From positions 11,656,001-11,720,000 of the forward strand of contig OZ287751.1 in NCBI GenBank assembly GCA_965649765.1: a stretch of 64,000 bases of DNA, in the 5' to 3' direction. The notes beneath the pieces were generated by a model. It searched no databases, was not told the DNA's origin, and saw only the letters and a program-made list of their open reading frames with translations. This DNA is from Bispira polyomma (lineage: Eukaryota). The position numbers and the translations under genes are program-made. This document shows positions 6,661-59,400 of this stretch, in pieces (position 1 is the stretch's first letter; every line of letters begins with the position of its first letter).

Positions 6661-6679
6661 TTATGCTAAGGACTTATGA

Positions 6680-16452: not shown

Positions 16453-17599
16453 CTAACTGGGTGTCTGCTTGTCCGAGGATCTTTTGGCGACATTCGCCTT
16501 AACACATTTGAATTCTGGATGTGTGTTCTCCCTATTTGCTGAGCGAAAACAATGGTTACATATGTGGCGATATTGTCCGTGGTCGGACTCGTGGTTGCAA
16601 GTGCCGTTATTGTAAAATTTACAAACATTCTTGGGTTTTTGTGATGCCTGTGATGCCTGTGGGGCCGTTAATCAGAGCCAGCTGCGATGTATTCATGCGA
16701 TTTAGAGCCCACTGTGTAGAGTTCGACCAATCCAGTCTACCCTCTTCCACCTCCTGCATGTTCAATGCCCAACCTGCTCTAACACCTGGCCAGGGAAGAG
16801 AAGCCGAATCCCTCAGAGTATAAATCATTTGGTACATCATGTGCCGCATGGTAGTGGCATCTGAGACTTGTACAATGTTAAATAACTGCCCGGCAGCCAA
16901 CTGTGACAGTGAGAGATCATCAAAGCTAGGTCGTTTCCGAGCAGTGCCTCCAATCCAGCCCTCGTTTGACCACCGAGATTGTGGATCAGACGTAATAACG
17001 TCCGTGGTGTTAAACCGATCGGATTTGTGTCTGAGGGAGGTCTTACCTTGCGACAGGTCCGTCCTAAGCTGCACGTCATAAGCCGCCAGTCGTTGATTTA
17101 CTGCAGCGTTAACCTCAGGTAGGGTCTTCAAAACATCCGGTCGAGGGATAATGCCATCCCGCTGGTAGTCTTGGTGAAGAGCAGCCACTGGGGCCCTGTA
17201 CTGAATGGCCTGAGCCGTGTGGACGTCTGTATGCGTGTGAGGGACGTAGTGATTACCCGGCAGAATCAGGGGAAGTTTGTCTGCAATGGGTGGCCGTAGT
17301 TCTATCATGGTATTGTTGGCGCCCTGCTGTGTAGGAGAGGTTAATGGGGCCGAGTTACACGCACCTGTCAATCCCACCTTATCGAGCCGTCTATTAATTT
17401 CAGAATTTGCTGATTCCAGCCTTTTTAAAATAGTCATTACGTCTGAAATACCATTCTCACCCGTCGCTGTCTGTGCTTCTGTCTCCTTTGTGATCCTAAG
17501 TTTCCTAACTACTGGATCTGTGCCTTTGGTTGTCCCGCGTTTAGAGGTCGTTTTCTTCTTGGATAACGGAATACTACCTGGTGTTTTCGTCTTCCCCAT
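16453..17599 (-). pseudogene. E1 gag (frameshift near 16635)
   Basis: Homologous to E3 gag (RWSNEGW, LRDSASLPW, TQWALNR); C-terminal CKFYNNGTCNHESDHGQYRHICNHC..HPEFKC zinc-finger region in the shifted frame. Confidence 0.88.
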
Positions 17600-27292: not shown

Positions 27293-30200
27293 TTAGTCAT
27301 GTATGTCATTATAGATAAATCCTGAGTGTAATCTTGTGTAGTCTTTGTGGAAAAATGCATTTGCCTACATTTATTCCATAAGGTTTCTAGAATCTTGTGT
27401 AGAATCTGAATGAATCTTGGGGTGTTATAGGGTAACTTGTAGATATGGCAGAAAGTTGTCAAGATAAGTATTAATAAATCCTGGCTACTCCTACCATAGC
27501 CTGGCAATGTTGTGAGGTCTAAGTATAATCAGAAATGGTCCTAGCATTCTGGTACAAAAACTTGTGGTGTTATTGTTATGACTCTGTTGGATCTTTGAAA
27601 GTCATGGTCATTTTGTTCACCGTGGTTCTGTCTATAGGACGTGGATGTGGGGCCTATGCAATGGAAACTCCTGGATCTACCCCATTTACCTGGATCTGCT
27701 ACCAAATATAAAGGATTAATGACACTTGGTACATCCCCCATCCCCACTAAGTTATTGTAAATTAGTTGGGCAGTTTTTGTGTGGAACTCTGCCTAGAACA
27801 AACAAACCTAACCAGACAAAAACATCACCCTTCTTGTCAAAATTAAACAATACTTTTAGAACTTCATTGATAGTAAACAACTGGAGCAGAAAAAACACAG
27901 TAAAAATATTAAGGCTTTATGACGTCAGTCTTAATGCTCTGTCACAAAATTTTGAAACGGTTCTACTCCAAACTGTAGTCATGAAAAAAAAAAAATTACA
28001 GCTACCGACGCTAGGCTCTACTGGTGCTTTGATAGAGTTGAAGAACTGAAATGTCCATCAAGTACAGCTTGACACTATTTAAATCTTCTCTATGAAATCA
28101 CTGTTTGTAGAATCTAACACAAATATGTAATTATTTGTTGAGCTTTTGTAACCAGAGTTTCTGCCTGACTGAAAACATCAAGAAAAAATATATTTTAGTA
28201 TAATGGCACTATCTGTTTAAAAAAGTAAAATATTACCAACAATATATGTCAGTTGTGATTATATTATCTGTCATTTGGCCTAGTATGTAATACACTTGCT
28301 TTTGGACTGGAACAGGCAGAGATGTAATGGTTTGGATGATGACTAGCAGTCCCCATCCCTAGTGGCAGACTTAATAATGTTGACGATTTTGACAAAATCT
28401 TCTTCATCAAGACTCTGTCTTCACTTAGAGGAATGACAGTTACTGGTGCTAGTTGGCTGCACTTGGGCAGCCAAGAGAATGGTTAATCAGGGCCTCTGAA
28501 TAACAGACAAAAGAGAATGTATACTTGAATATAAATACGAATTTTTCAGATAGCATAATTAATTCTTAGATGAAGTGAGATATTGAAAATTAATTCATTC
28601 AATTAAAACATTTTGAGAGAAAAATATTGAAAATAGTTATTTTACTATGTCATGCTGGAATTATTTTGTCACTAAGCGCCAACCACAACTTGAGGCATTA
28701 CAATTAGTTCAGAAGTCATCTGAGCCATTCTGCATGCTATTACCCACTAGGCCTCTGTGGAAGCCAGACAGAAACCTTGACAAAAAAAACAAAAAACACT
28801 GAACTGCTACATTAATTTAAATCACCTTTATTTTACTGTTATCTCATATCTTTAGGTCATCTTAAGTTAAGGTAACATTCACATTTGGTCAGGTCTTGAT
28901 ACACTTAAGTAATCCAAAATTAAGTGAAGATAGGTTTAACTGTATTAAGGTGGCCTTGTCTCTAGTTTTGTATATACAAATAGTGCATACCTCCTGAACA
29001 AACTACAGCTTTTTCCACTTTCAAAATCAAATATACAAGGTCATGTCTCACAGGAGGAACATTGGATTTTCCAACAAGTGTTTGAAAAAAATGAAATCAT
29101 AGGGAGATTTGTGTCAACATGTTTGAATATATACCGCTTCATTCTACATTCAAGAACAATTTCTTCCGGTGATTAGACACAGTTGTTAACACCAGCCGCC
29201 TTTCCGGAAACTCCTACAACACTTTAAAGGCCTCTTTGCCAACCCACACTTATAAGTGACAGTTTAAAAGCACTTGATTGGCCAACATGGAAATCTCCTT
29301 TAGGAAGTTCTTTCATCAAAATCATTTTAAAAAAGGCAAAAAAAAACAAAAAGGCAAAAAACTCTTACATAAAAATACCTATATGAAGATAAAAGCTTGA
29401 TTTTTTATTATGTTTCTCCTTAAAATTTGCAAATACTCATCTATTACTAGATGGAAGTGAGACAGACATTATTAACTCACTTCTCCACCTCAACATTTAT
29501 GTGCTGGTTATAAATGAACTCTGATCATGAACCTTTTTTTCCTATCGCACTATTCTTTTGCACATTGACTGGGATGTGTACTACAAAGAATGTCTGGTCT
29601 TCGATTGTAGTGCTATAGAGGTATAACATTATAATTATCAGCAGATAATTTTCGTGTGATTATACTATGTCATCCACATTATAATAATATATGGCCCTAT
29701 ATTTATTGTAGCACAACAAATTTCTGATCTAAACAGACAAAACATTGAAAATCGTCATCAATCTGCTTACAGAAAATTCCACTCTACAGAAAGTGCCCTT
29801 TTTTTCTATCAGCAATGATATCAATCTTGCACTAGACCGCAATGAAACAGTGGCCCTCACCCTTCTAGATCTTTCAGCAGCATTCGACACTATTGAGTAT
29901 GGCCTGCTCTGTGACACTCTCAAGCAGTGGTTTAGGATAAATGGCAGTGTTCTTAAATGGATCAGATCTTACCTTACTATTTGAGCACAAGAATTAAGTT
30001 AGATGATAACTTATCCTCTTTCATAAACTTACTATACAGAGTACCCCAGGGATCCGTCCTTGGCCCTCTACTTTTCACCCTTTATACACATCCTCTCAGC
30101 ATTGTCATCAATAATCATAACATAAAACACCAGATGTACGCAGATGACATTCAAGTCTATCTCTCTCTCAACCCTCAAAATGCAAATAAAAATATTGACC

Positions 30201-33200
30201 TACTTGCAGACTGTCTGTCCGATGTCCAGGCGGGAATGAACTACTCTAGACTAAAACTAAATCTGAACAAAACAGAATTCATTCTCATTAGAAGCAAGAA
30301 AAATAATGAATTCTTAAAATCTTTGTTTCCAATCTCCCTTCCGCAAAAAGACATACTACCTTCAGTAAATGCCAAAAACCTGGGTGTCACTTTCAATTTA
30401 GCTTTTTCATTTGACACTCATGTTGCTAACATCTGTTGCTCCTGCTAGTACCATATACGCAACATCAAAAGAATACGAAAACATCTGTCAATGGACACAG
30501 CGAGAACTGTGGCTAACGTCCTCATTTGCAGCCGCTTTGACTACTGTAACTTTCTTCTGCTCGGAGTAAACAAGTCACAGATCAAAAAGCTCCAGTCCAT
30601 CCAAAACTACCTGTGCAAGGTTATTTTTGCTTGGGTTGTCACACAGATGTCACTCCTTACCTCAAAAAAATTCACTAACTGCCCATTCACTGTCGTATTT
30701 TTTTCAAGATTCAAGTTACCGCTTTCAAGGCTGTAGTCACTCAACAGCCCTCTTACTTTGCTTCCCTTCTCTTCTTCAGTAACCGTAAGAGAGGCAACAG
30801 ACTCTCTATTTCTTCGGTCAGACCCATCACGAAGGAGGGATCCAAAGCATTCTCCATTGCAGCTCCTTTGTTGTGGAACAAGCTCCCAGTTTACCTTAGA
30901 TCAGTTGATACACTTAAAAAAAAAAGCTTAAAACCTATCTTTTTAACCGTGCCTACCCACCTTAGCTTACCTTGTACATGCTCCCACCTCTTTCCTTACG
31001 ACTTTGCTTTGCCCATGGACTTTACAATTCGAATAATGAATTTTGCTGTGGCTCTTTGGAAGATGCCTCGAATCAATAAAGCGCATTAAAAATTCATAAT
31101 AACAATAATAAAAATAATAGGAGTAATTATTTCTGTGTGTTATATGGATAAAAGTAACATATTAGGTTGACCCTTTCGCGAAGCATCTAAATTATTCAAA
31201 CACTTATAACCACATTAAAACGAATGTAATAAATACATATTGTGGTCAATTTTGTTGATATATCACTTGTTATATGGGGCCCACATGTTCCTATGTATAG
31301 TCATACATTGGCTTCCTATTAATTATCAAATTTTGATTTAAAATCAATGTCATAACTGTATATCTGTTGTCTCTCCACATCCCTCCTACTGTGCTACTCA
31401 TCTCTTAACTTTCGACTTTTCTGTGTCCTCTGCTAAGCTTTCTCAATCAGTGCCCTTGTGTTATGCAGTAGTCTCCAAGTTGAGCTTAGCTAGCTACCTC
31501 CCCTAACTATCTCCCTGTAGCCTCTCCTAACTCCTTCCTTACAATCTGCATATTGTATCTCAATTGGTTCATTTATTCTGTTGTTGCACTTTAGATGATG
31601 CCTCTCATCAAGAAGGCATGTTTAAAATGCAAAAATACAATGCACTCGCCTACCACCTGGGTTGGCATTATTGTGTTTTTGTTAAAAAGTTGCTACTTTG
31701 CACCAACCACCCTTTTTGGATTTCTTCTCCCATTCACTACGAGACAAATCGTCATGACAGTGATGTTAAACCAAACCATAATCTTGTTGATTGATATGCA
31801 ACACTTCCTGTTTGAGGAGGGATATTTGGCAATTACTATATAATCACCTTTGTACATAATTTTATGAGCATGTATCACTTTTATGGAGTGATATTTTATT
31901 AGCAATAGATGACTGATCAATATATTTGTAATTCTTTCCATCACAAAACAATGACTGAAAAATGCAAGGATTAATGCATAACCAGCAAGGTTGTCACACA
32001 AGCTCATAAAATACTTAATGCAGAAAGACCTTGGTGACACAAAAGGAAAATAGGGCAGTGAAGAAATACACAAAACTCCACTTACGTTTTGATGAGGCTG
32101 AACAACAAAAACTGCTTTTACCTCATTAAGTGTAAGGTTGAATGTGTCACTGAATGCTTGAAAAAGTCAGAGCTAATATTTCCCTTTAACAAGTTTTTCT
32201 TACTTAATTGGTTTGAATGCTTATATGGAAATGCTTATAATTATGTAGACTCGGAAGAAAGAACTTTTTCCCTAAACACCACTGTGTAAAGTCCATAAGT
32301 TTAATAATGCTGTACAAGCTAATTGAAAAACCACATTTTAGTGACATTCCAGTAATTTTGAAAAGTTGACTGTAGTAACAGCATATTATTTTACATTTGA
32401 GAGCTGTTTTCAAATATGATCCTAACATAATATCCTTGCAATGCAATTATTTGCCTTAATAAAAAGTCATGGATGGAAATACTTTATTGCTGACCTTAAT
32501 AAATAATGTTTTGTTAACATAAGACAGATATTGCTCCCTGGAGTGACATTGTGCTTATTTTCATTTGGTTAAAATGTGAAATAAATGTCTAATATGCAAA
32601 ATAAGTCACTAATACACATTTGATTTACTATGGAAGTTTCATCTAAAATGAACACATTGGACAGAAAGATCAGTGGAATCTTTAAAAAATCACACTTTTT
32701 ACAGTATAGTTTCAATAAAAATAGAAAGCGGTTTTAACTTCCTGCCAAATTAGTCGAAATTCTGCAACTTAAACTGATGGTTTGAGTCAAATACTATAGC
32801 TATAAATTTCCTTATTAAGGGTATAGCCTAGACAACTTAGCAGTAATTTTAATGGAGCTTTTAGTGAGGCAATCAAATTTGTTCTCGGATTTTAGACATA
32901 TTTAGTGTACACTAAGATGAGACAGAAGATATTTTGAGATATTTTGTGAGTGTAAGTTTTAGGGCATTTAATCAATACAGACCCTGATGTCAACTCAACC
33001 CTGGGGACCAACAAACAATAGCCCTTTGGTGAAGTGGAGAGACACAACCTTCTTAAAAGGACAAGGGGAGTAGTTTAGGAAAGCAACAATTTGGTATCAT
33101 TCATATTACAGATATGGAAGTTGTGATTTCGTTCTCTAACAAAATATATAATTCCAGTTATGTAGATTTCTACAGGACAACAGACACTTGCACAAATAAG

Positions 33201-34749
33201 TTTTAAACTTCTTCCAAATTTTTAATGAGTGTTAGAGATAATGCCCCCTCAAATGTTAGAGTTGAGAATATATTTTTATTCCAAGTTAAAACTACATTAT
33301 CTTCAAACTAAGGTAAGGCCACTTTAAGATGTAAGACAAAATTAGCGTAAACCAGCTTAAGGTTACCTGGGCTTAATGCTCAGGTTGCTTCACTTTGAGG
33401 TTACCTTAACTTTACAGTTAATGTTGTGACATGAGTCAGTTTAAGGTCACATAAGTTTAAGTCTTGAGTTACTTGACTTTTGGGTAACCTTAATTGACGT
33501 TTAAGGTTGTACAAAGTTGCTAAGTAATAAAATTTAAGGTTGTCTTAAATTAGGAGTTCATGTATATGATTTTATTGGTAATATCAGCTACGAATGGATA
33601 AATGAGATAAAAAATAGCACTAAAGTACTGTAAAAATACACCTCTTACACTCATTATAAGGTGTTTAGAGTTAAAGTCCCAACTGCCTCAGGATTTAATT
33701 CAAATCCTGTAAATCAATTTAAGTAGCATTGTGACCTCTGAAGTGTTTACCAGGGACCTAATCCAGCAAAAACTAAATCATATTCAAACTATCCTGCCAA
33801 ATAATCTATTTTGTTTTTGGGTGAGTGCAAAAAAAATGCTCCCTCGAGTTTGGAATACATATTGATTCTAAGTTCAAACTACATTACTTTCAAGCTGAGA
33901 TAAGGCCACCTTAAGATGAAAGACAAACTTAGCGTAAACCAGCTTAAGGTTACCTGGGTTTAAGGCTTAGGTTGCTTTACTTTAAAGTTACCTTAATTTT
34001 ACGGTTAATGTTGTGACATGCGTCAGTTTAAGGTCACATGAGTTTAAATTTTGGGTTGGTTGATATTATGGTGACCTTGATTTATGGTTAAGGTTGCTAA
34101 AGTTTTTAAGTAATAACATTTCAGAGGGCCTTAAATTAAGAGTTTAAGTATATGATTTGACAGGTGATAAAAACTAGGAATGAATAAATGAGATAATAAG
34201 AGCACTAAAATAGTGTAAAAATACCACTCTGACACTCATTATGAGGTGTATAGAGTTAAAGTCCTAACTGCCTCAGGATTTAATAAAATTCCTGTAAATC
34301 AATTTAAGTAACATTGTGACCTCTGAAGTGTTTACCAGGAAACTTATCCAGCAAAAACTAAATCATACTTAAACTACTCTGTAAACTATTTAACTGTATA
34401 TTGATTAATAAATTTTGTGTACAGTTGCATATGTTACCCATTTTTTATAAATGTAGTTTTTTGTTAAAGTGGATTGAAGTTTGACATTTTGCATGAATGT
34501 TTTGCAGAATTGGTTAACAATTAAAGCAAAGTATACATTTCATATGATATTCCAACTAATTATATAATATACTTGATGATTAATAGACCATCTATTTTTT
34601 TGTCGTGTTTAACACAGTATAAAAAATCCTCTCAACCCTATAACTGCAATTGGTAAATCCATTAGTTGCAGGTTTTGTTACTGACTTTTCCCATTCAAAT
34701 CAATGATCAGAAGCCTTGAAACAGAAAACAACAACAAATGGACTACTTA
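27293..34749 (+). repeat. Diverged tandem duplication, copy 2 (with LINE insertion and internal ~550-bp duplication 33240-33790/33835-34375)
   Basis: Colinear blocks, e.g. 23030/28670, 24730/31590, 26205/32962. Confidence 0.9.
29740..31119 (+). mobile_element. 5'-truncated L2/Crack-type LINE
   Basis: LLDLSAAFDTI, VPQGSVLGPLLF, YADDIQVY, LWNKLP; frameshifts; (aat)n tail; absent from duplication copy 1. Confidence 0.9.
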
Positions 34750-35694
34750 AAAGTACTTCTGTGATTGGTTGATGTGACAAGCCTTTGACAAAGCTTACAT
34801 CATGCTTCAACTAGAACTGAAAGGAATCTGGAACAGTTGAAACTATCAGAATCTAATGAAAAAAGATTTTTACATCTCCCTTTTAATACTGTGCTTTTAC
34901 AGTAAATGTGCCTCTAGTATTTAATTGTAAACACATACTTTTTCTAATATTAGATTATTTGCCCTGTGTCTATTTGTTTGTTATCTTATCTAGATTTAGA
35001 CAAACGATCTTTTTCCTGTTCTTTATGTTCACCCTTCACTTTAGAATTGTATACTTTAACCAATTAATCTCTTACCTTGCCTTCAATGTCAAACAACGGG
35101 GTTAAAATCTCTACTTTTTATAGCATGGAGTTGCCTGCCTATTCTTAGCCAGTAAGTGTGCGGGGTAGCCCCATAGGGGTTAGCTAGGTCATTGCTCCCA
35201 GTCATTTTGTAAAACTATTCTTGTTCAACTGACCCCTATTCTAATTGGTCTTGGGTGGACTAATTAACCCAGCTTTTCCCGCTAAATCTCTGAAATAACC
35301 AGTACAAACTAAACTACCAAGGAGGCAACACCGCCATCTTAATTATATTTTATTTTGTTTTATGTTTTTACACAATTTTAATCACCATAGTCAAACTTTT
35401 ATAGTGATGTTGTGGATTATAGTCTATGCTGTTTCACAGGGAGATTGTTCTCACTACTGACCACTTGATGTCGGATTTGATGTGTTTTAACTCATACTTT
35501 GAGTCTTGCTTATATTGCTTGGGTTTCTGACCATAAGCTACGTGTAGAGGAAAGTTATTCAAAAAATACTAGTCAAATTGACCTTTGGTCTGCCTTGTGT
35601 TTATAAATAACCTTTCTAAATTCCTCTAGCAATATTTGCAAGTATCAAAGGCCGAGTGTTCTTTGTATTATTTCCAGAGACATAAACAAAAATT

Positions 35695-36692
35695 ATGGCT
35701 CCTCGTAAAACATATGACTGCCAGAAATGTGGACAAAATCATGTTAAACCAATAGATGATAGATGTAAATTAGCAAACACTTTATTGTCGGAGAACTCTG
35801 TTCAAGCGAATGCAAGTCAAACTCCTGTTGGTGATACTAACTCTCAAATCCTACGTGAATTGCGAGCACTGGGGGGTCGTATGACCCTAATTGAGCAACA
35901 GGTTAGGCATTCAGAACATAGAGCGCAGTCCTTGTCCAGTTCACCACTGATGACCACACCCATGCGCACAAGCCAGGAACAGAGACCTACCTCGACACTA
36001 GTGGATCCGGAAGATGTCCTCGTTCCTTCTTTGCAAACCCTGCGAGACTCCCAGCAGTTGCAGTCAGCAGTCGACACCCGCCTCAAAGAACTGGCTGTTA
36101 TTAACGAGGCAGGTATGTTTAAGTCACAGAGGGGGGGGGGGGGGGGACAGATACTGTATGGGTTAAAAATAAAGTACCATGGCCCCAAACTTTGATTCTA
36201 GGGGGGCAAAATAAGGGCAGGTTGTCCTATGACTCTCTTTCCATGGCTCAATGGTTGGCTGGCTTCACCAGCATTATTAGAGATGAAAGTGATGTAACTA
36301 TTAAAAACCAAATTCTTGAATACCTCTCTGATTTGATGGAAGATGCTCATGACTTCTCTTGGAATTCAGCTAAGGGCAGTCATGCAGTGTTACTTTGCAA
36401 AATGGAAGAGGGAAAAATTACATGGGGGGATTCCCACAAACTAGACAGAATAAGAAGAGCTCATGCTCAAAAAGTAGTAAATTCAGGTCAAAATTTAACT
36501 CAAAACAATTCCAAGAGAAGTCATGACAAAGGGGCTCCATGCAAATACTATCAGAAAGGTACTTGCTCCCAAAAAGGGGACCACGAAACCAGGGGCCAAT
36601 CCTACCTCCATGTCTGTAGTGTATGTTTTGCATTGGGTCGCTCCCATGCCCATCCTTCTAAAGACTGTCGAAAAAATACAAAAAACGAATGA
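35695..36692 (+). pseudogene. E2 gag (frameshift in G16 run 36131-36146)
   Basis: N-terminal CQKCGQNH..C knuckle; MEDAHDFSW; C-terminal CKYYQKGTC..H..CSVC..H..C. Confidence 0.85.
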
Positions 36693-39222
36693 GGCACTGC
36701 AGCTGTGCAGTGCCCAAAATGTTTCTCAGTAATCAAACCTGTAAAAAGGACAGACAATTTGTGTGTCGTAATAATTTTAATGACAGAGTTGTACATAGTA
36801 GTGTATGTGATGTGTATGGTAGTAGTCACTGGAGAACTGATTGGGCTCATTTCAAACAAATGTCATACGCAGATGTATTAAAAAGGGGCAAGGCAAAAAC
36901 CAGTTTCAGGAGTAATTTGAGTAGAAAAACTGACAGTTTCTCCAGTGATTCCTCCAGATGAATAAAAAAGTCACAACATGTATACTAGTATCTTTAATAT
37001 GTGCCATAGTACTAAAATGTGTACACAAGTACCTGATAGTAGTAAATGTGTTGTAAGAATTGTAGGAAATAATGTCAGATGCAGCACTAGCAGGGTCAAT
37101 GGAAAAGTGCCAAAGGAAAAGTCACACCTTCCCAAATCCCCTGTTAAATCAATTGTCCAAGAAAAAGGTGCCAAACTTGGGGAAACAAGTAGGTCAAAAA
37201 CCTCTGTCCACTATTCACACCTCTTGAAAGGTATGAATTCTCCAACCCCCATTCAAAACAAATTTGCAATTTTGGCCACAATAGGTGATGGGGACAATAC
37301 AAATACTGAGGTCAAACAAATCAACACCTCTGTCCCTAAAGGTGGTTGCACACCAAAGGTAAACAGCCATGGGGTTAAGCTGAACACACATACAGCAGGT
37401 AAAGGTGCGCTTACACAAGGCAGTATAGACAGTGACAAATATGATTTGGAACTGCAAATCAAACCACGCCATAAGGACTTAATAAGCAAGGCTTATAACG
37501 AAACGCGCTTCCAACTGTGGAATTCACAGATGAATGACAAATATGGTTTTATTCCCTTAGGTGAATTACAAATTCCAATTTCTGATAACCGGCATAGCTC
37601 CCAGAAGTCGTTTCAAAAAACAAAAACGACCAAATTTTATGGGTGCACAAATAGAGATAAAGTCAGAACTAAATTCAGACGCTTGGGAAAAATACCTGCA
37701 AGGCTACTGGGATACCCAGTTGCCATTTTTAGTGAGATACGGCTTTCCACTTGACTTTGACAGCAGCAGTAAACTGTTGCATACCGAAGTTAATCATAAG
37801 TCGGCTACAGATTGTCCGGACGATATTAAGGCATACCTTGATGAAGAAATAAAATATGGTGCAGTGCTGGGACCATTTAAAGAAGTTCCCATATGTGACC
37901 TTCATATCTCACCATTCATGTCAAGGGAAAAACCTGGGGCACCTCATAGACAAGTACTAATAGACCTCAGTTATCCACATGGGGAATCTGTCAATACTGC
38001 TGTAGCTAAAGACAAATACTTAGGAACACCATTCTGTCTAACCCTTCCAACCATAGACACTATCACTAGCAAAGTAATCAAACTAGGTCGTGGGACGCAG
38101 TTATATAAAATCGATGTCAGCCGGGCATTTAGGCACGTAAAGATCGACCCAGCCGACTATAATTTGCTAGGCTTAAAGCTGGAAAAATACTATGTAGATT
38201 CGTGTCTCCCCTTTGGTTTTCGGCACGGAAGTGCAAATTTTCAAAGATTAAGTGATGGCATCAGATATATAATGCAATGCAATGGCTATGACGTCACAAA
38301 TTATGTTGATGACGTCATAGGATATGGAAATGACGTCGAAAGTCAACGCTCATTTGACTTGTTGCATAAATTATTACTAGAATTAGGTTTTGCGATTAGT
38401 AACAAAAGACTAGTGTACCCCAGTACAAAAGTCACACGCTTAGGCGTCCTTGTTAATACCCAAGACTTCACAGTCTCCATACCACCAGAAAAGTTGGAAG
38501 AAATAGGTAGCATGATAAGTCTATGGAAACATAAGCAAAAATGTACAAAACGAGAACTCCAATCATTGCTGGGCAAACTACTGTACATATCAAAATGTGT
38601 ACGAGTATCCCGGGTTTTCCTTAATCGCATGTTGGACACTCTGAGACTGGCAGCCAATAGCAAAAATATAAAATTAACAACAGAATTCCATCAGGATGTA
38701 AACTGGTTTTCAAAATTTTTGCCTACATTTAATGGCAAAGCCTTTTTTTATCTTAAACCAACAACTGACTGTATACAACTCGACGCTTGCTTGCAAGGTT
38801 TTGGAGGCCGATGCAATGAACAGGTATACACCCATGACATACCTCTGTGGTATCTTAACCTCACAATTGTACACTGTGAGATGCTGAATATTTTGGTAGC
38901 CATCAGGGTATGGAAATCTCTCTGGGCAGGTAAAAGACTAATCATTCAATGTGACAATGCAGCAGTAGTCTCTATTCTCAGTTCAGGAAAAACTAAAGAT
39001 TTAACATTAGCAGCCATAGCTAGAAACATTTTCATGGAAACAGCATTGGCTGACATAAGTCTCAGAACTATTCATATATTAGGTAGAGATAACAATGTAG
39101 CAGACTTGCTGTCTCGATGGCAGCTCACAACAAATACCAATGATAAGCTCAAACAGTTTATATCCAACCCTATATGGATTCCAGTTCAAAGTAGCATGTT
39201 AGAAATTGACTGGTCTATATAA
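36689..39222 (+). pseudogene. E2 pol (N-extension, RT, RNase H; two frameshifts)
   Basis: KIDVSRAFRH, LPFGFRHGS, YVDD, LDACLQGFGG, CDNAAVV, ADLLSR in 37561-39222. Confidence 0.9.
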
Positions 39223-39228
39223 TTCCAG

Positions 39229-40217
39229 ATGTACCAGCTCACCTACAACAGATAGCCTCACAAGCATCCCACAGAGCTGACAGGGCTTTCATACCATCTA
39301 CTGAAAGATCTTATCAAAACATGTTTCGATTATTCTTAGCTTATTGTTGTTTCACTCATATTGACTGTCATTCAATTTCTCCCATGTTGCTACTCTGCTT
39401 CCTAGAGTGTTTGGTAGTCAATGATGTGTCTTCGTCCTCCATTGCAAATTACCTGTCAGTAGTCAAGGCAAAAATGGCCTTGCATGGCCTAAATGTAGCA
39501 GCGTTTGCTGACCCAAGAATCAAATATTATCAAAAATCATTAATCCTAAGTACACCATTTCGAGCTAGAATTAGGCGAATTATTGATATACCTTTACTTT
39601 GTCAAATTATTCAAATATGTGACACAATGTACATGGGCCAAGTTTTCAAAGCGGTATACCTTGTGGCTTTCTTTTGATTTTTACAAATTTCTAATTTAGT
39701 ACCATATGCAGTCACACAATTTTCACCCTTGCAACAACTGGCCCGAGGTGATATAATTTTTGCCTCTCCAGGGCTCCACATTATTGTAAAATGGACTAAA
39801 ACCCTTCAGTCCAAAAACAGGGCTAAAGTTGTGAAAATTCCGGCTCTAGGTGCTTCTCCTCTCTGCCCAGTTGCAGCAATCAGGGCCTTGCCAGCCATTA
39901 CCCCTGGCCATAAGAATGGCCCCCTATTTCAGTTTAAAAAAGATTTTACCTGGATACCACTTACTGACACTAGAGTCAGATCAAATCTTGCCCAAATACT
40001 AAAGCGCCTAGGTTTACATTCCTCAAATATTACATTCCACTCTTTCCGGTGTTCAGGTGCCATCTTAGCTTTTAACAGCAATGTCCCCATACAGGACATC
40101 CAAAGTCATGGCACCTGGACGTCGGATTGCGTCTGGAACTATAATGTCCAAGATCACAATACATCAGAACAAGTGGCAATGGCTTTCAAGGCTCTATTAT
40201 GTAGACCTACCTCCTAG
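39229..40217 (+). pseudogene. E2 tyrosine recombinase (in-frame stop 39675-39677)
   Basis: KWTK, HSFRCSGA, HGTW, WNY; first catalytic Arg appears mutated to Gln (FLQISN). Confidence 0.9.
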
Positions 40218-42612
40218 TTGGGCTTGGGGCATTTCATTTACATATATCTTACACTAAATACTATATCATATACAGTATATCTAAAAAATATATACATATA
40301 CTTAGGGCCACCCTAGCTTCATTCTTTATTAAATTTTATTTACATTTTAAACTTTTCCTTCGGTTACCTTACAAAAAATTAAGGTTATCAAAATCTAAAA
40401 TTTTTCTCTTGGGTAACCTTACACCAAAAAGTTAAGGTCACCTCATCTATCACTTTATGGTGGCCTTACTCAGATTAAGGCCACCTCAATTAATTTATGG
40501 TAGCCTTACCAAAAACTTAGTTAAGGCTGACCTTATATTTATTCCAACTTAGGGTAGCCTTAGTCAAACTTAAATCTGGCTACCCTAACCATAAACTTAA
40601 TTAATGGTAGCCTTAAATTGCAAAGCAATTCAAGGCTCCCTTTTTCTAAATCTTATCAAGCTCGGGTGGCCCCCATCTAGTTAGTGAATAAGTGTAGTCT
40701 TTTAACATAGAAATAAAATTAATATCCCAAACATGCTCGTTCATATTTCGTGTTTACCACAATGCTAAGGTCACACTGAAGGGCAATGTATCATATCTAA
40801 CTGAACTTCATTTACCTTTAATGCCATATACTTCAACTTCACATCAAGGTCATACACAGGGTCACAATCTCTTAACTTAGGAACTAGCACACAAAACTAT
40901 TGAAATGTTTGGTTAGATGGTCCTATTTTTGTGAACCTTCATATTGCAACTGTGGCTAAATGGGTGTCATATATTATAGTTACACCAGATACTATAGCTA
41001 CTATTAAAAACAGCTGAATACATAGAGTAAGCAACACAACTTTAATTTAAGGTTACCTTAACTTTACAGGTCAGGTTGAACTTAAAGGCTCAGATTGGTT
41101 GTGTTCAACATGATCTTAACTAATGGTTAAGGTAGTAAAACGTTAAGTAATAACAATTTTAGGTGATCTTAAAGTTAGAGTTAAAGTTTATTCTTTTATA
41201 GGTAACATAAACTAAAAATATATAAATCACATAAAAAGAGCACCAAAGCCCAATTACTTAACAAACCCGACAATTACATGATGTTATAAAACAAAATTTT
41301 ATAACATTAGTAGAGAGGTGAAATATCAAGGTCACGTGGTTTGGATCAGTACATATGTAATAAAACACTCTTCTGACTCATAAAAAGGGCATGATTGTTA
41401 CGAACAGCCTGGGCTTTGATTGAAATATTGATGAATATAATCTGTATTGCTGACTCACACAATTGATGTTATTTGATTGTGTAACATTTAGCCCAGTCTG
41501 CCATTCGTGTAATACATTGCCTTCAATGTGCTGTTATTAATGTATGTTATGTGTTCTATGTGTACTGGTGTCTTTCATTGTAATAGTGTGTCTTGTAAAA
41601 ATAGGATAAAATACACCAAGAACTCTTTGACTTGTAATAATAATAACAATAATCTATGTTTCAAACACACATATGAAAATACAGGTCTGTATAGTAAAAG
41701 AGAGATTTCAAAAGCCATAAAGACTAAATAAGAGGTTTTAAGTGAGAAATAGTTACATCACTAAAGCCCCAGCCACACAGCCCTCCCGACCCTTTAAACA
41801 ATGGCTGCGAGCGAAAAAAATGTGATAGGTTGCTGGAGGCCTTTTGTAATCTTTAAACTGTCTTGCATTCGATCCATGGGGGTTGCTGGGGGTTCTGCTA
41901 GATCCTTGTTAATTCTGAATGGGTTTCTCTTGTAGAGAGGTTACCTGGATTACAAGTGATTCTTCTCTATGATCAGGATGGTTGCTAGATGTTTTAATTT
42001 ATTTCCCACTGATCTGCAATAGGTTTCTTATAACGTGCCACCTCCGTGCCACAACTTTTCACAGGTTTTGGTTTGTGTTTAACTGGTCTTTGATATTTTT
42101 AATCAGCGACATTTCTTAAATCCGTCACCAACCACTCTGAAGATGGGTTGTCTATCTAAAAAGCAATATTTGATGATCTCAGCAAGACGGTGTCTAATCC
42201 CTGATCCGTTGCACAAACAATCCCCGAGAAGTGTCACCACTTGTCGCCGACATGTGTACTATCAAAAGAAAATCCCCGACTATTAACTGATCTCTATTCA
42301 GTAGTTCCAACCGGTCTGAAACTAATTCCTGAGTGGACTCACCACCTATCACCAACTATCGCCGACCAATCAAATTATTGGAGAACGCTCTTCAATTATT
42401 TTAAAATTCCCCCCCCCACTGGACGGCGACCAATCGGAAACCTCTCGCAGACCTATTAAAGAGCCAAAAGAGACTGGTCAGGCGATAGGTGCTACAGGGT
42501 GATTTTGCTATTCGGCTATCAGTTTCAACTTAGTCCTTTCTACGTTTCTACTGCTGCATATTACTAGATTTTAGTTCTTCAAGTGTTTCAAAACTTTAAT
42601 TAATATATAATA

Positions 42613-44430: not shown

Positions 44431-44849
44431 GTGAGCCCACTCAAAAGACTGAGGTGACCTTGGTGTATAACTTAAACATTTCAAACTTGAACTTAACCTT
44501 TGGTTTTTGCATAGCACGACCCAATAGGGGTCTGCTACTTCAGTTCAACCAAAGGAAAATGTATTACTACTTTAAGCCCTAGGGGCAAATTCGACAACTG
44601 TAGCATGATTCATCCAACCGTGAACTGGCCAGCCAATTAGGGGTCTTCCCTCCCAAATTCTGCATTCCTGTCCTAATATCTTCCATTTTGGAAAAGGATT
44701 CAGCAGTACACACACGTACATTTTATACAGCCAAGTTTATGAAGGCTCTGCTGAATGCAATTGTTTTTAGTATTTTAGTTTTTTATTTTATTGTTTGTTT
44801 TTAATATACTCTACTTTTTATGTGTTTGTGATATATATATTGTGGTAAA

Positions 44850-46103
44850 ATGGGGAGGACGTCTGAAAGGAAATTAAGACACACTAAGAAGACCCCAGCT
44901 ACTGAAGGCAGTAAGGCAACAAAGAAAGGTACAGCAAAGAAAAGCAAATTGGGTAAGAATACTCGTATTGATGACAGTATCATAACTAACCCCAGTAGCC
45001 TCTTTGATCAAGCTGAGGCCGACCACGTGTCTCCATCTACCCGATCTCGGCTTACGAACCCCACCGGATCATCATACCGGGACAATGAAATGCTAACCAT
45101 ACTAAGGCGGCTTGAGGAATCTAACGCGCTACTCACCCATAGGTTGGATCGAGTAGAAGCTAGAGACTCGACTGCTCAGTCAGCATCTCCTTGCCTAAAT
45201 CCCACACGTTCTGCTCACCAGGTCGCGTTGGGTAATGACATCACGGCTCAGCCACACCTCTCAGCTCCAGGTTCCATGACGAATCCTAGTCACTCGTATC
45301 CACAGGCACCGCTGTCGATCAGTACCACGGCTCAGCCACACACGTCAACAGCCAGTTCACTTAACCGGGTCGACTACACCACTGATGCAATCGTTCCCAA
45401 AGCAGACATCCTGAAGACGTTGCCAGACATACAGGCAAGGGTCAACGAGAGGCTAGCCGAGTACAACCTCCAGGCCCAGGCCGTATTTACCCAAGGTAAG
45501 GCTGCTCTCAGACAGAAGTCGGGGAGATTTAATACTACAGACATACCGAACAGCAACCCGAAGACTAGGTGGGCAAACGAGGGGTGGACGGGTACTTCTT
45601 CGCGTAAACGACCACCTTATGATGACTTGTCGCTTCCTCAGTGGGCATCTGGCCAGTTGGCAAATGCTCTCCAGGTCACGGACCCTCTGGTCTCGAGAGA
45701 AATTATACAGCAGGTCGTTCTATCCCTCAGGGACGCCGCGTCACTACCATGGGAGGTCGTCCGAACGGCCTGGGCGTTAAACATGACCGAGATTGAAGAA
45801 GGTAGACTGTCCTGGGGGGACACAACGCAGTGGGCCCTCAACAGGTTCAGTGCGTCACAGCTAGCTATGGTGAATTCTAAAACCACCAATGCTTCATCTA
45901 CTCACGTCGGATCAACAGCCAAGGTTATTTGCAAACTGTATAACTCCGGAAAGTGTTCGCATAAAGCAGATCACAGCCAGTATAAGCATGTGTGTTGGCA
46001 CTGTGCTACCGTGCTTCACAAAGATGTATACCACCCAGAATTTAAGTGTTATAAGTCCAACTCAGCTAAACAGGCAGAATCAGGCTCTTCTTCTACCCAC
46101 TAG
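44850..46103 (+). CDS. E3 Gag (417 aa) with C-terminal Cys/His zinc-finger region
   Basis: Intact ORF; CKLYNSGKCSHKADH..CWHC..HPEFKC. Confidence 0.9.
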   Translation: MGRTSERKLRHTKKTPATEGSKATKKGTAKKSKLGKNTRIDDSIITNPSSLFDQAEADHVSPSTRSRLTNPTGSSYRDNEMLTILRRLEESNALLTHRLDRVEARDSTAQSASPCLNPTRSAHQVALGNDITAQPHLSAPGSMTNPSHSYPQAPLSISTTAQPHTSTASSLNRVDYTTDAIVPKADILKTLPDIQARVNERLAEYNLQAQAVFTQGKAALRQKSGRFNTTDIPNSNPKTRWANEGWTGTSSRKRPPYDDLSLPQWASGQLANALQVTDPLVSREIIQQVVLSLRDAASLPWEVVRTAWALNMTEIEEGRLSWGDTTQWALNRFSASQLAMVNSKTTNASSTHVGSTAKVICKLYNSGKCSHKADHSQYKHVCWHCATVLHKDVYHPEFKCYKSNSAKQAESGSSSTH

Positions 46104-49100
46104 GACATTGACCAACTACCAGGACTAGGGCCATCTTGTCATAACAGTGAAAGTAAGAATAAGTTAGAAGTATATGTAAAACAGAATTATGAAGACCAAG
46201 ACATAACTAAAGCAGATAAGCATATGCTTTCATTGTTAAATAAGATGGAAAGTAATAATTCGTATATTTCTTCAAACAAACCTAAAAATGTTAATGTGAA
46301 TGTATTGTCACATGAAAGTGAAAATGTAAAAAATGTACACACTGTTAAACCGGAAATGTGTAAACCTAGCTTGTCAATTAGTACTGACAAAAAGAGCATT
46401 GATGATAGCCATATTGCAGTTAAAAATTATAATGTCATTAGATTGCCTAACAAGTTTGGAAAGATAAAAAATTCATGCACTGCTAAAACGGCAATGTGTG
46501 ATCCTAGCTTAACAGTTAGTATCGACAAGAAGGTTAATAATAGTGAACCTATTGGGGTCAAGAAATGGAATGTTCAGCAATATATCAGGGCCAGTGTACT
46601 GGACTCGAGTACCAGTACTAGAATGTACAGAGATGACAGTTATGGTCAATTCACCAAATTTGGGGGCTTTTCTAAAAATAAAGGTGATATTAAGATAAAT
46701 GGTCTAGATAATTCACACAGCGAAGTCCCTGTATTTTGGGGAAACAGAAATATTGGTGAACATTTAGAAAGAGAGAATAAAAGAAATTTTACAGTTAATG
46801 CTGATTTATGTAATGCCAGCAGTGTTAATGCCAAGTATGGTACCCCAAATGAGACAAAAGTAAAAGTTACCATCTCTACTACTAATTGGTTGTTTTGCAT
46901 GCCTCACATTACACAAGGAATGCCTGTGGTTTTTGTGCAGTCTGAGCTGCCACATGTTTCTGGTTTTTACACCTCATGGGATGAGGATTTTGGGACAAAT
47001 TTCTACAGATGTAAGAACCCACCAACTGGGGTAATGTCAGTGACCAGCATAGTCACAACTCAAATAGCTTTGGCTAATTTTAGGGATGATTTTCAAAACA
47101 GCAACAAGGTTGTAACAGTTACTGATGATGACAAATGTAAAGCTAAGGATGCTTGGCATGATTTTCAAAAAGAAATGTATTGCAAAAACAATTTCAAAAA
47201 AGGTTATACAGAATATGTAACAAATATCATTGACGAAATGTTGTTAGACATAAATGTAAATACAACATGTGTTGTCAGTAATGACAGACCAATGGAGGTT
47301 CAAACCTGCCATAAAGGTAAAGTAGCGTCGTGCGATCTCTTCTTCCAAACTTTTGGACATTTCTCACAAACTACCACAAGTGCCACCATAGTGGATAAGG
47401 ATATTAATTTCCCCAACAAAACTAAGGGTTTCTTGGCAATCTCAGAAACCAAGTTTAGTTTTATAGGACCTGACAGGGCCCCCATACACATTACTTCAAT
47501 TAAGGAAATGTCTGAAATAGCACAAACCATTAGGGATACGGGATGTCCCAATTATAAGGGAGCAAGGATCCCCCTGGTATCAGGTCTTAACACCAAAGCA
47601 TGGGAGGAAGTCCTTTCAAATTACCCAGATGAACTTTTACTACAATATATCAAGTTTGGTTTTCCCCTCTCACTTACTTGTCCAAAGGATTTAAAGGTCA
47701 AGGATACCACCAATCACCACTCTGCACTTCAATTTAAGGACCACATAAGGCAATATTTAGAAAAAGAGAAACAGTGTGGGGCCATGTTAGGACCTAGTTT
47801 AGACATTAAGGATGAATTATTTCACTGTTCTCCACTGCTCACCAGACCTAAGGACAATTCCAAAAGGCGTGTAATTTTAAACTTGTCTCACCCCAGTGGG
47901 GAATCACTTAATGACAATGTCAATAGGAAACAATTCGATGGAGTGGACTTCACCTTAAAATTTCCCACAATAGACGATATAGTAGAACAGATTCGTAAAA
48001 CACACACTCCACGTATCTTTAAACTGGACGTCGCGCGCGCTTTTAGAAATTTGAGGGTGGACCCAGTCGATGCCATGAAATTAGGAATCAAATTTGACGA
48101 CCATAAGTACGTTGATCCGGCGGTTGCGTTCGGCTGGGTCCACGGCTCGACTGCTTTTCAGCGTTGCTCGGACGTTATAGCACACACCATGGAGAAGCAC
48201 AACCATAAGATCTTCTGTTATATCGACGATTATGCTTTTAACCAATTATATGAACTGGTTACCAAACTTGGTTTTCCGTTAAACCCAGAAAAAATTTCAA
48301 AACCAAGTTCAAAAGTCACCTGTCTTGGCATAGATATCGACATTCAGGCAGGCACTATAAGTATTACTCCCGAAAAAATACAGGAAACATATAACCTCTG
48401 TTTAGAAATAGTTAACAAAGTTTGGATATCTAGAACTAAATTTCAATCAATATTGGGAAAATTGCTTTACATCCATAAATGTGTAAAGCCTGCTCGAATG
48501 TTTATAAACAGACTTCTTATGGCGTTTCGGAATAACAGTCAAGCTAAACGATTTAAAATTTCGCATGACATGAAGGCTGACTTATTATGGTTCGTACAAT
48601 TTCTACCACGCTATAATGGTATTACGTTCATTGATCCGGTAATTGCTAAGCATAAGGACGAGGTTTTTATTGATGCATGCCTCACTGGCCTAGGGGCCAT
48701 CTACACCAATGAGGTTTTCGCTACCCCATTATACAACATCTATAATAGGGCTTTATCTATCGTGCATATCGAAATGCTTAACATTCTATTAGCTTTAAGG
48801 GTCTGGGGTGAGCAGTGGAGTCATAGACGTATAATCATGAATTGTGACAACATGTCCGTTGTCCTGGTAGTTAGGTCCAATAAGACAAAAGACGATTTTC
48901 TTGCTTTATGTTTAAGGAATATCTGGCTAATCTCGGCTGTACATGATATTACAATCGAGATTCAGCACATTAAAGGTAAAGACAATGTAATTGCTGACCT
49001 CCTTTCAAGACTTTTTTCTGAGCAACCCCCCCATAAGGGACAGTTGGAAATATTAAGGGATTCCTGTAAGTGGCACACCATTCCACTCCAGTACTTTAAC

Positions 49101-49118
49101 CTAGACTTAAATATATGA
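46104..49118 (+). CDS. E3 Pol (N-extension, RT, RNase H), in frame with gag
   Basis: Open from the gag TAG; KLDVARAFRN, AFGWVHGS, YIDD, IDACLTGLG, IEMLN, CDNMSVV, ADLLSR; no methyltransferase domain seen. Confidence 0.92.
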   Translation, partial: DIDQLPGLGPSCHNSESKNKLEVYVKQNYEDQDITKADKHMLSLLNKMESNNSYISSNKPKNVNVNVLSHESENVKNVHTVKPEMCKPSLSISTDKKSIDDSHIAVKNYNVIRLPNKFGKIKNSCTAKTAMCDPSLTVSIDKKVNNSEPIGVKKWNVQQYIRASVLDSSTSTRMYRDDSYGQFTKFGGFSKNKGDIKINGLDNSHSEVPVFWGNRNIGEHLERENKRNFTVNADLCNASSVNAKYGTPNETKVKVTISTTNWLFCMPHITQGMPVVFVQSELPHVSGFYTSWDEDFGTNFYRCKNPPTGVMSVTSIVTTQIALANFRDDFQNSNKVVTVTDDDKCKAKDAWHDFQKEMYCKNNFKKGYTEYVTNIIDEMLLDINVNTTCVVSNDRPMEVQTCHKGKVASCDLFFQTFGHFSQTTTSATIVDKDINFPNKTKGFLAISETKFSFIGPDRAPIHITSIKEMSEIAQTIRDTGCPNYKGARIPLVSGLNTKAWEEVLSNYPDELLLQYIKFGFPLSLTCPKDLKVKDTTNHHSALQFKDHIRQYLEKEKQCGAMLGPSLDIKDELFHCSPLLTRPKDNSKRRVILNLSHPSGESLNDNVNRKQFDGVDFTLKFPTIDDIVEQIRKTHTPRIFKLDVARAFRNLRVDPVDAMKLGIKFDDHKYVDPAVAFGWVHGSTAFQRCSDVIAHTMEKHNHKIFCYIDDYAFNQLYELVTKLGFPLNPEKISKPSSKVTCLGIDIDIQAGTISITPEKIQETYNLCLEIVNKVWISRTKFQSILGKLLYIHKCVKPARMFINRLLMAFRNNSQAKRFKISHDMKADLLWFVQFLPRYNGITFIDPVIAKHKDEVFIDACLTGLGAIYTNEVFATPLYNIYNRALSIVHIEMLNILLALRVWGEQWSHRRIIMNCDNMSVVLVVRSNKTKDDFLALCLRNIWLISAVHDITIEIQHIKGKDNVIADLLSRLFSEQPPHKGQLEILRDSCKWHTIPLQYFNLDLNI

Positions 49119-50104: not shown

Positions 50105-50705
50105 TTTGGCTTGGGTGATTTTAAAATTACCTTGTATTTTAATAATTTATACCTATTTTACACCTACCTGTATATAGATTTACTAACATGTACAGAATTT
50201 AAATAAATTCCTCAAACCATAGTTTCACTGTCTTCTGCTATACTTACCAGACTATCTTTCCACTACAACTTACCTTCTTTCCATTATACCAAGTAGAACT
50301 GTGCATAGCACGACCCAATAGGGGTCTGCTACTTCAGTTCAACCAAAGGAAAATGTATTACTACTTTAAGCCCTAGGGGCAAATTCGACAACTGTAGCAT
50401 GATTCATCCAACCGTGAACTGGCCAGCCAATTAGGGGTCTTCCCTCCCAAATTCTGCATTCCTGTCCTAATATCTTCCATTTTGGAAAAGGATTCAGCAG
50501 TACACACACGTACATTTTCCACCCACCTCCCCTTAACCACACCATAAGTTAATGTTCATTGTTCATTTCTTAGCTATGGCCACTTTTGGTACTAAGCACA
50601 TACTATGTTAAGAAGATCTCTGGTTGCGGACCCAAAAGGGCCCTGCTGAAAATCTTTGTAAGATAGGAAATCACTTAAATTTGGTTGGATTTGTGGGAGT
50701 TTTTT

Positions 50706-57329: not shown

Positions 57330-59400
57330 TTTCTTTTAAAATATCTTAAACATCAAATCAATTAATAAAATATGTCTGTGTAAGTCCACATCAAAAATTT
57401 TCTTGAGCTTGGTTTGCAAAGGTCTGTGCATGGCCAATGCTATATTAAAGTAAGAAATTCTCTGGTCTAAGAATGCTTGAACATCTATATGGCATATAAT
57501 ACATTTAGCTTTTATAGCCGAGATCTGGTTAACTACTTGTGTAGCTGATACACCATTGAAATTTAGAAACTCTAGATATGTCAATAATTGCAAAACAGTC
57601 ACCTTGTGGGGAGGCCACGACATGAAGGTTCCAAAAGCTAGGAACTGTCTGAACATTCTGTCATAGGCTTTATTAGTGGCTGGAGTAAAGGCTGAGTTTT
57701 AGCCTGTCACAAGCACTTTTCATCAAGGCCAGACCCATAGGGTGAGTGTCTGAAAAAAAAGACTGAGACTTGCTATATAAAAGTATTCACATAAAGTAAG
57801 TTATCAGCAGCAGGAAGCCATTGAACTGGCCCAGCTAGTTAATTTAATAGTGCATGTTATATGGTACAGTAATATGTACAAACACTGATTTTCTGGTACA
57901 ACCAGTACTTTTAAAGCATCACTATAACTAACGTTTGGCCTTCTGACCTGCATATATTTACACATTTTCTGATACACATTTTTCTCAAACAAATGAAAAT
58001 CTTTGAGTCCTGTCCCATAGACAGTTTTATTTACAACCTTAATATTTTCAACTTTTCTGTCAACTGCATTCAAGCAGTGGCCCCTTAGTTTTTTGCCCCT
58101 TTCTTGCCCTCACAAGTCTCACAATTGTGCTTGTACACTTGACCCCTTGTGTTATGGGAATTGGAGCAAATTCAGTCTTGGGAGAACCTGCAAGGCATTA
58201 AACCCTTTTTGTGACTAGTTTTGTTATTGCTGGTACTCCCCTTGCCCCATTGAAATTTGTAGATGTACTAACGTGGCGTTGGGCATGTGCTCGACGGATT
58301 CTATCGACTTTCTCGATGTTCAACTACCACAGCTTGTCTATCTCCATATTTGTTAGGACTACTGCGTGGCATACCTTTGCTGCCTCCCACGAAAAGTCTT
58401 GGGCATTCTCCATGAGGCCACTCATATAGTTTGACACTCGTATAGTTTGACATCGCATTCTTGATTTTAGTCGATTTCTCTTCATGTGCAATCCGAGTAA
58501 AACCACAAACCCACTGAACTAGGGTTAAGTCATCATAGCTTGGGCGCGTTTTTGAGCTACCCGTCAACACGTAATTCTGTGGCCATCCGACCATTTTTTT
58601 CACAATTACATCGTTTTCCCCAGTTCTTTGAGACTTAAGTTTACCTGAGGATTTGAATTTGAATTTGGATATTTAACGTCCACTCTAGTACCTTTTTAGT
58701 AGGTTATATTGGGACGGGTAGTTGGAAATGCTGGAGGAAACACTGCATACAGTCGGTCAAGGTTCTGCACAGAAACCAGCGGCCCACAGTAAGGAACTAC
58801 CACCTTTCCCACATAGGCATCGACGGGATTCAAACTCACGCCGCCCAGAGGTGAGAGACCAGTGATTGTGAAGCGCAATGCTTGCTAACCACTAGGCCAC
58901 CGCGGCCCCAGTTTACCTGAGGGAGTTTCATTAAGGGTTCTGAGGTCTTTAATTCTTTATTCTACTTGCAATTGAATCAGAGCATTCTGACTTAAAAAAT
59001 CGACACTAGAAACGACAGTATCGTGGCCTGCACCAGACAGGCTGTTACCTTCATCAGCAGAAATTACATTTGGAGAAATACTAGAAGGAACTGTACTACT
59101 TGCCTTACTACTGGTGAGGTTGGCCGCCAACGCCGCCTCCACTTCCTCACCCGAAACATCAGGCACAACAACCGAACAATTTCTTCCAACCGGTCTCTCA
59201 TGTTTTTGCAAACTTTTCGGGCAGAAAACAATTTTTATACCAGGCATGACTTGAGTGTGTATATTAAAATATTAAAATGACTAAAACAGTAAAACAAGTA
59301 TAAAACATAGAACACAACTCTCTTTGTCAACCACCAAACTGTTTTAAAACTTTCAAAGTGACACTATGTCAGTTAAGTGAACATGTTGCCAATAATTACC
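57330..59400 (-). mobile_element. E4: RT-less, E2-family YR retroelement remnant (gag, short pol stub, 5' part of YR)
   Basis: gag 59247-58085 (CPKS..H..C, GKLKSQR, WPQNY, MENAQDFSW); stub 58073-57804 (SYSDALK, cf. E2 SYADVLK); YR N-terminus 57749-57336 (AYDRMFRQFLAF). Confidence 0.8.
58651..58909 (-). mobile_element. tRNA-derived SINE inserted in E4 gag
   Basis: A/B boxes; TSD agtttacctgagg (58638-58650, 58910-58922). Confidence 0.93.

Follow-up and report, generated by a model that had tools for sequence, protein, structure and literature searches.

The 64,000-nucleotide stretch of Bispira polyomma DNA analysed here (contig OZ287751.1, positions 11,656,001 to 11,720,000; hereafter the window) is AT-rich, with a GC content mostly of 30–44%, and holds LINE fragments, an interspersed repeat and four tyrosine-recombinase (YR) retroelements, E1 to E4. 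In E1, E2 and E3, gag, reverse transcriptase (RT)/RNase H and YR lie on one strand in this order. The subject of this report is the gag/pol junction of E2, at which a slippery heptamer is followed by a short spacer and a hairpin, and Pol would very probably be reached by programmed −1 ribosomal frameshifting (PRF). The parts of E2 are listed below.

35695..36692, plus strand: gag, with an N-terminal C-x2-C motif and a C-terminal double zinc knuckle, homologous to unbroken Gags of 313–330 aa; frame broken at a 16-G run at 36131
36680..36686, plus strand: slippery heptamer A_AAA_AAC in the gag frame
36687..36692, plus strand: 6-nt spacer GAA TGA with the gag stop; the overlapping ATG at 36689 is taken as incidental
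36693..36714, plus strand: 9-bp stem with a 4-nt loop, the predicted frameshift stimulator
36680..39222, plus strand: pol, with a long N-terminal extension, RT and RNase H but no methyltransferase (Pfam, matches of its three frames to intact Pols, sister contigs); broken by a stop at 36959 and by frame changes near 36980 and 37610
39229..40217, plus strand: tyrosine recombinase (Pfam) lacking an ATG of its own, with an in-frame stop at 39675

The gag/pol junction of E2

The sequence AAAAAAC at 36680–36686 is read as A_AAA_AAC in the frame of the gag ORF 36123–36692, whose C-terminal end is KNTKNE followed by the stop. Directly beyond the spacer GAATGA, GGCACTGCA-GCTG-TGCAGTGCC makes a perfect stem, which is also the minimum-free-energy structure (z −3.0 over 121 nt, with 0 of 200 shuffles equally stable; z −3.2 over 44 nt, with 1 of 200). 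Among the 836 heptamers of the form X_XXY_YYZ that the two strands of the window contain, the one of E2 stands alone in having a Watson–Crick stem of at least 8 bp located 5–9 nt downstream. From 36680 onwards the −1 frame has no stop until the TGA at 36959. The in-frame heptamer, 6-nt spacer, 9-bp hairpin and −1 ORF of the preliminary description were thus all confirmed in the sequence, and a zero-frame heptamer with a structure 5–9 nt downstream is what defines a −1 PRF signal. A_AAA_AAC is also used at the gag/pro junctions of MMTV and HTLV.

The arrangement fits the canonical bipartite −1 signal (PMC7618472), A_AAA_AAC counts as one of the shiftiest heptamers on mammalian ribosomes, and pol lies in the −1 frame in 28 of 51 animal LTR retroelements (both PMC5009743). 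With the signals of retroviruses and LTR elements the junction shares the zero-frame X_XXY_YYZ, the 6-nt spacer, a stable stem-loop and a gag stop just downstream (PMC7618472). It differs in belonging to an element with a recombinase and without a protease or DDE integrase, in a −1 frame whose first 300 or so residues, ahead of the RT, are a poorly conserved linker, and in a simple hairpin with no evidence for a pseudoknot. A pseudoknot was considered and found unsupported, the loop being of 4 nt and variable. Long-range pairing with the RNase H region (11 bp) was likewise dropped: 22 of 100 shuffles were as good and the readouts of relatives do not keep it. Rfam gave no match within 35000–60500 of the window. 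A perfect 20-bp inverted repeat also occurs in the E2 gag coding sequence (36347–36366 and 36507–36526, 140 nt apart); it ends about 150 nt upstream of the slippery site and is not evident in the proteins of relatives.

Whether the −1 frame encodes Pol was judged against 120 Pol proteins, the best 120 of 498 matches. In a permissive tblastn, the three pol pieces of E2 matched successive parts of unbroken Pols: the −1 piece matched the N-terminus in 44 of the 120, the middle piece in 76 and the RT piece in all 120. The −1 piece reached an E value of 2e-9 against the Pol relative P0360. The WxxDW motif of the −1 piece is present in 41 of the 120 Pols, where it lies in a single ORF 263–441 residues (median 293) before the RT. 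Moreover, near-identical high-depth contigs from the same organism (three public runs, two samples and one study; contigs only) are length-shifted relative to E2 at both frame breaks, which brings the −1 frame into register with the RT. Of 732 differences in this comparison 40 were listed, none of them inside 36680–36714, which neither shows nor denies conservation of the DNA there. The alignment of one sister contig runs to 36701 and resumes at 37705, one side being as short as 23 letters; this would agree with a diverged member that has only the signal and the RT in common with E2. A weak search for longer proteins containing the 93-aa −1 piece gave three candidates, none of them scored. Overall, homology supports the −1 frame of E2, and that of E4 described below, as the N-terminus of Pol. 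One Pol relative of 861 aa (P0365) continues in frame into the recombinase; it is a single cluster member and probably a mutated copy.

Conservation of the predicted signal and its alternatives

The junction of relatives was read from their proteins, while its DNA comes from E2 and E4 only. The Gag set held the best 120 of 175 matches, 80 of them with a complete second zinc knuckle. Among these listed complete Gags, 67 of 80 end in KN (43 in KN[ED]-stop, 15 in KN[ED] plus a short extension, 5 in KN-stop and 4 in KNx-stop), against a background of 0.006 per position elsewhere. The pattern thins out in 73 more distant complete Gags: 13 with KN[ED]-stop, 15 with xN-stop, 3 with KNx-stop, 18 with KN in the tail by a loose rule, 21 others and 3 too short. 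On the Pol side, KKRxx[SGH]C occurs within the first 45 residues of 9 of 120 relatives and not once among the remaining 87,348 residues.

Motifs for each of the three junction frames were counted in 448 proteins. Frame-0 tails of the form KN[ED]x[GS]TA, which include the 5′ arm, were found in 20 proteins from 14 clusters (shuffled mean 0.02; 6 of the 20 matches are near-duplicate cluster members), −1-frame readouts of the form KKRxx[HSG]C in 14 (shuffled mean 0.28) and +1-frame readouts in 7 (shuffled mean 0.0). Since xKN[ED] in frame 0 and KKR in frame −1 have to be encoded by the same bases, the codons can only be A AAA AAC. With E4 included, the −1 readouts open with KK[RL]. Fully compatible pairs of a Gag tail with a −1 readout numbered 4 of 874 (shuffled mean 0.3, maximum 3 in 200 shuffles). 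The codon of the second residue begins with C in 34 of the 41 motif-bearing Pols (background 22%), a bias that gene calls beginning at the GTG-C of the 3′ arm would produce. The stop of gag sits 0 to 12 codons past the heptamer in 129 representatives, and HC and AV, the residues of the stem, are kept in 12 of 19 −1-frame readouts whose loop residues vary. The stem arms thus read are GCACTGC and GCAGTGC, which relatives show as the motifs HC..AV and GTA..QC. A heptamer and stem that are kept while loop, spacer codons and stop position vary form, as far as protein sequences tell, the pattern of a signal acting at the RNA level.

No relative turned up when metagenome, viral and genome contigs were scanned with the Gag alignment, the junction pattern had 0 matches in viral contigs, and the RT scan of viral contigs was negative; the other RT scans gave seven distant loci (L001–L007), none within the frameshift clade. 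A search of the window with a pattern designed from E2 and E4 was circular and is not counted as evidence.

The second DNA copy of the junction lies in E4, of which the following parts were recognised.

58085..59247, minus strand: decayed gag, split by a 255-bp interspersed repeat at 58910–58656
58088..58094, minus strand: heptamer A_AAA_AAC directly before TAA
58063..58078, minus strand: 5-bp stem in the register of E2, weak by itself in folding
57909..58094, minus strand: remnant of the Pol N-terminus in the −1 frame (KKLRGHCLNAV...SYSDALK), matched to the Pol relative P0410
57776..57874, minus strand: what is left of the Pol C-terminus (four Pol relatives in tblastn, E 0.003–0.009; translation), with RT and RNase H deleted between the two remnants

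The E4 heptamer (58094–58088) is in frame with the local zinc-knuckle reading of Gag (HNCETCEGKKGAKN, then stop). The stem ACTGC-TTGAAT-GCAGT begins 9 nt past it, in a register matching the ACTGC core of E2. In the −1 frame, 57909..58094 aligns with residues 8–70 of the 871-aa P0410 (30% identity, E 3e-7), and the last 30 codons of Pol appear 35 nt beyond this N-terminal remnant. With both ends of Pol only 35 nt apart, RT and RNase H must have been deleted, and ORF 58073–57804 is therefore a remnant: the first approximately 60 Pol codons running across an internal deletion. The copy of the 255-bp repeat within E4 sits on the predicted gag donor and is flanked by a 13-nt duplication.

The preliminary description had joined E2 and E4 as a sister family. 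Both do carry the heptamer in the same register; however, their Gags are 34% identical and blastn between them gives no match, for which reason they are regarded as related subfamilies rather than copies, and both are dead. Its account of E4 was right about the heptamer before TAA and the presence of the hairpin, but the stem is at chance level and 58073–57804 is not pol.

Several observations weigh against a conserved frameshift signal. The 5-bp stem of E4 is not more stable than expected (z −0.26, 73 of 200 shuffles as stable), and stems of at least 5 bp follow 48 of the 836 heptamers of the window, which makes it ordinary. In E2 itself the −1 frame is closed by the TGA at 36959, a position whose state in the sister contigs is absent from the listed differences. 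The KN rule is unmet in 13 of the 80 complete Gags (11 not fitting and 2 cut short), and 7 of the 19 readouts, a second subclade, keep KKR but not AV, and would need another structure or none. No covariation was shown, as the stem is invariant in the 12 readouts with a variable loop. The stem residues are also coding (HC..AV), so that protein constraint may account for them, and the protein matches may stem from few host genomes. Conservation of spacer and stem, a check proposed in the preliminary description, was borne out by the protein readouts, for the stem in those 12 of 19; the stem covariation named with it could not be shown. Conservation of the heptamer, the companion check, was upheld by the KN tails and KKR readouts.

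Three other routes to Pol were weighed. The least improbable, and still a slim chance, is a splice that joins the gag donor to an acceptor where pol begins, namely the GCAG/TG of the 3′ arm (36710): the AG at 36709–36710 fits the phase of the donor, and an acceptor there would agree with AV being kept in 12 of 19 readouts. However, the site lies inside the stem, is missing from the 7 readouts that keep KKR, and has no T-rich tract (pyrimidines 0.42 with two AG in the upstream 20 nt, compared with 0.47–0.74 at seven YR acceptor candidates, a weak contrast), and a splice leaves heptamer, spacer and 5′ arm unexplained.

Termination–reinitiation at the AUGA stop–start overlap (36689–36692), aided by the hairpin as in SART1, is very unlikely as the route to Pol. 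SART1 does offer a precedent, its UAAUG overlap between ORF1 and ORF2 being combined with a downstream RNA structure (PMC3894237), and E2 has the ATGA, while the gene calls of 4 of 120 Pol relatives begin at MRHC. Across relatives it is the heptamer that is conserved and not the AUG: methionine stands at the place of the E2 ATG in 5 of 19 readouts, four of which are gene-caller starts, the others having V, I, P, A, G, T, S or L. An AUGA is impossible in at least 32 of the 67 KN-ending Gags (KND-stop, KN-stop, KNx-stop and later stops), AUG-bearing Pols stand beside non-AUG sisters in four subclades, and E4 has no ATGA; the heptamer, too, would stay unexplained. The overlap, named in the preliminary description as the counter-case to frameshifting, is thus not kept, although reinitiation could add to frameshifting in the E2 subfamily. 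Lastly, it is hardly credible that the motif is a by-product, with protein constraint or common descent preserving KN and HC..AV, and an internal promoter or another route giving pol: Lys-rich Gag tails, the missing covariation and the weak E4 stem would agree with it, but the motif holds in two frames at once, forcing one codon choice, while flanking residues, loop and stop position vary freely and Gag identity among carriers falls to about 35–45%.

A programmed −1 frameshift at the gag/pol junction therefore remains the strongly favoured reading of these sequences. The mechanism is a known one that now seems mapped in this group for the first time; what the preliminary description proposed is supported both by the conservation of heptamer, spacer and stem, read in three frames, and by homology of the −1 frame to the Pol N-terminus. 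In active members, a minority of ribosomes would likely halt briefly at the stem and shift back by one base on A_AAA_AAC, yielding a Gag-Pol fusion, while most would make Gag. From established knowledge, the slippage would be a tandem one of tRNA-Lys and tRNA-Asn, and the Gag:Pol ratio would be set thereby.

Candidate readthrough relatives and the predicted recombinase splice

In contrast to E2 and E4, the stop of gag is in frame with pol in E1, E3 and the metagenome loci L002, L003 and L006; L001 is broken at the junction, and L004, L005 and L007 are without one. The two stops of the window are as follows.

46101..46103, plus strand: gag TAG of E3 in frame with pol, candidate readthrough
16453..16455, minus strand: gag TAG of E1 in frame with the pol-side ORF, candidate readthrough

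In an RT tree of 20 rows, a well-supported branch (96/99) separates 13 frameshift-type rows, classed by DNA for E2 and by protein motif for the other 12, from 5 in-frame-stop rows; the tree is unrooted and its sampling is biased to the relatives of E2. A looser Gag tree (FastTree, loose labels) places E2 and E4 in one set of 41 rows, with KN tails also outside their clade. Families of the E1/E3 type would probably reach Pol by readthrough instead. Mapping the routes on an RT phylogeny had been suggested in the preliminary description, and its claim that related families use different recoding routes agrees at the sequence level with both the in-frame stops and the tree.

The 45 nt after the in-frame TAG of E3 and E1 pair best with the RNase H region 2.5–2.7 kb downstream (E3: 46107–46144 with 48841–48878; E1, minus strand: 16451–16409 with approximately 13916–13867). 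The pairings have dG values of −44.4 and −38.5, respectively, with 0 of 100 shuffles as good in each, and the partner is the homologous CDN motif in both elements, with different sequences. Such pairing after the gag stop was not seen in L002, L003 and L006. It is a candidate readthrough stimulator of E1 and E3 and, by folding and homology, supports programmed readthrough there.

The recombinase would probably be made by a separate splice from the middle of gag, for which two sites of E2 were predicted from the sequence.

36107..36118, plus strand: predicted splice donor in gag, AG/GTATGT, cut after 36112, phase 1
39215..39228, plus strand: predicted splice acceptor before YR, phase 1

Donor and acceptor sites were picked by eye at homologous places. 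In all six elements checked, a phase-1 GT donor lies just before the gag KS[GQ] motif; a phase-1 AG precedes YR in E2, E3, L002, L003 and L006 by arithmetic and in E1 by the blast frame; in-phase sites from Gag to recombinase are thus present in both frameshift-type and in-frame-stop elements. In L006 a tandem copy (1–1509, compared with 3154–3241 and 5704–7211) is joined exactly from donor (GAAG/GT) to acceptor (TTTGTAG/), in frame; its likely origin is a spliced RNA that was reverse-transcribed. A second deletion in this copy, 79 nt long, shows microhomology of 4 nt and lacks GT-AG ends, so the join may instead be a microhomology deletion. The Gag-YR splice that the preliminary description regarded as shared accordingly stays a prediction, with sites in matching phase and, in a distant relative, a single natural copy that shows the exact join. 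It is plausible that Gag, Gag-Pol and Gag-YR would all be initiated at the AUG of gag. Both L006 and L007 are animal-type Ngaro elements; their contigs belong to the records of two bacterial MAGs, whose bins probably contain host contamination.

Element class and neighbouring sequences

E1 (minus strand, approximately 17896–11186) and E3 (plus strand, 44508–52470) contain gag, RT/RNase H, YR and A1..B1A2..B2 split direct repeats. The layout is that of Ngaro (DIRS order), as defined in PMC4157794, PMC8547959 and PMC9210276: gag, RT/RNase H without a methyltransferase, then YR, with the split direct repeats in E1 and E3. No methyltransferase was matched in Pfam, and pol stops about 30 residues past RNase H. 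The RT of E2 is 38–40% identical to those of the repeat-bearing E1 and E3, a comparison made within the window and without a named reference Ngaro RT. Unlike Ngaro, E2 and E4 have no detectable terminal repeats: a scan of 33500–42500 detected no split direct repeats for E2, and self-blastn gave no terminal repeats for E4, each being truncated or decayed. E2 and E4 are dead Ngaro-type retrotransposons of different subfamilies. The 3′ end of E3 (50112–52470) is a 100% identical tandem repeat of a 1084-nt B-A-spacer unit, and similar tandem terminal units occur in L002 and L006.

Published accounts of Ngaro give, in the portions available, overlaps or 'frameshifted' ORFs without a signal. A gag/pol slippery site for any DIRS-order element was not found described in the available text of PMC3783388, PMC8547959, PMC9210276, PMC6681497, PMC3266345, PMC7192593, PMC4157794, PMC13003380, PMC8226300 and bioRxiv 10.1101/2022.06.16.496473. 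A review sentence quoted in PMC13003380 proposes frameshifting for the pol/YR overlap; in contrast, the slippery site here is at the gag-to-pol step and YR looks spliced, and such a signal argues against frameshifting serving the recombinase. The mechanism is textbook and well known in retroviruses; what seems new is its mapping at the gag/pol junction of this transposon group. Expression of the downstream ORFs of YR retrotransposons has so far been a guess in the literature, and here a short, testable signal is offered across a large clade. That both of its DNA copies are dead and its mechanism is textbook limits the weight of the finding.

On balance, though with a modest degree of confidence, we favour a common, retrovirus-like plan for animal Ngaro-type elements in which every product begins at a single AUG: Gag would be the default, a conserved phase-1 splice would give Gag-recombinase, and recoding would give Gag-Pol. 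The recoding module would have been swapped in evolution, between readthrough with long-range pairing (E1/E3) and the A_AAA_AAC −1 frameshift (a large clade including E2 and E4), while the splice was kept. Frameshift and readthrough in related elements of one genome make a natural comparison.

The 255-bp interspersed repeat has copies at 58656–58910, 53973–54226 and 19420–19671 (91–92% identity). ARAGORN finds no tRNA in these copies; they have motifs resembling box A and box B, which we take to be a tRNA-SINE pattern. A broken reading frame at 54231–54662 (minus strand), without a Pfam match, presumably resembles the N-terminus of a Harbinger-type transposase. Broken LINE-like reverse transcriptases (RVT_1 matches) lie at 6680–8308 and 29957–30448.

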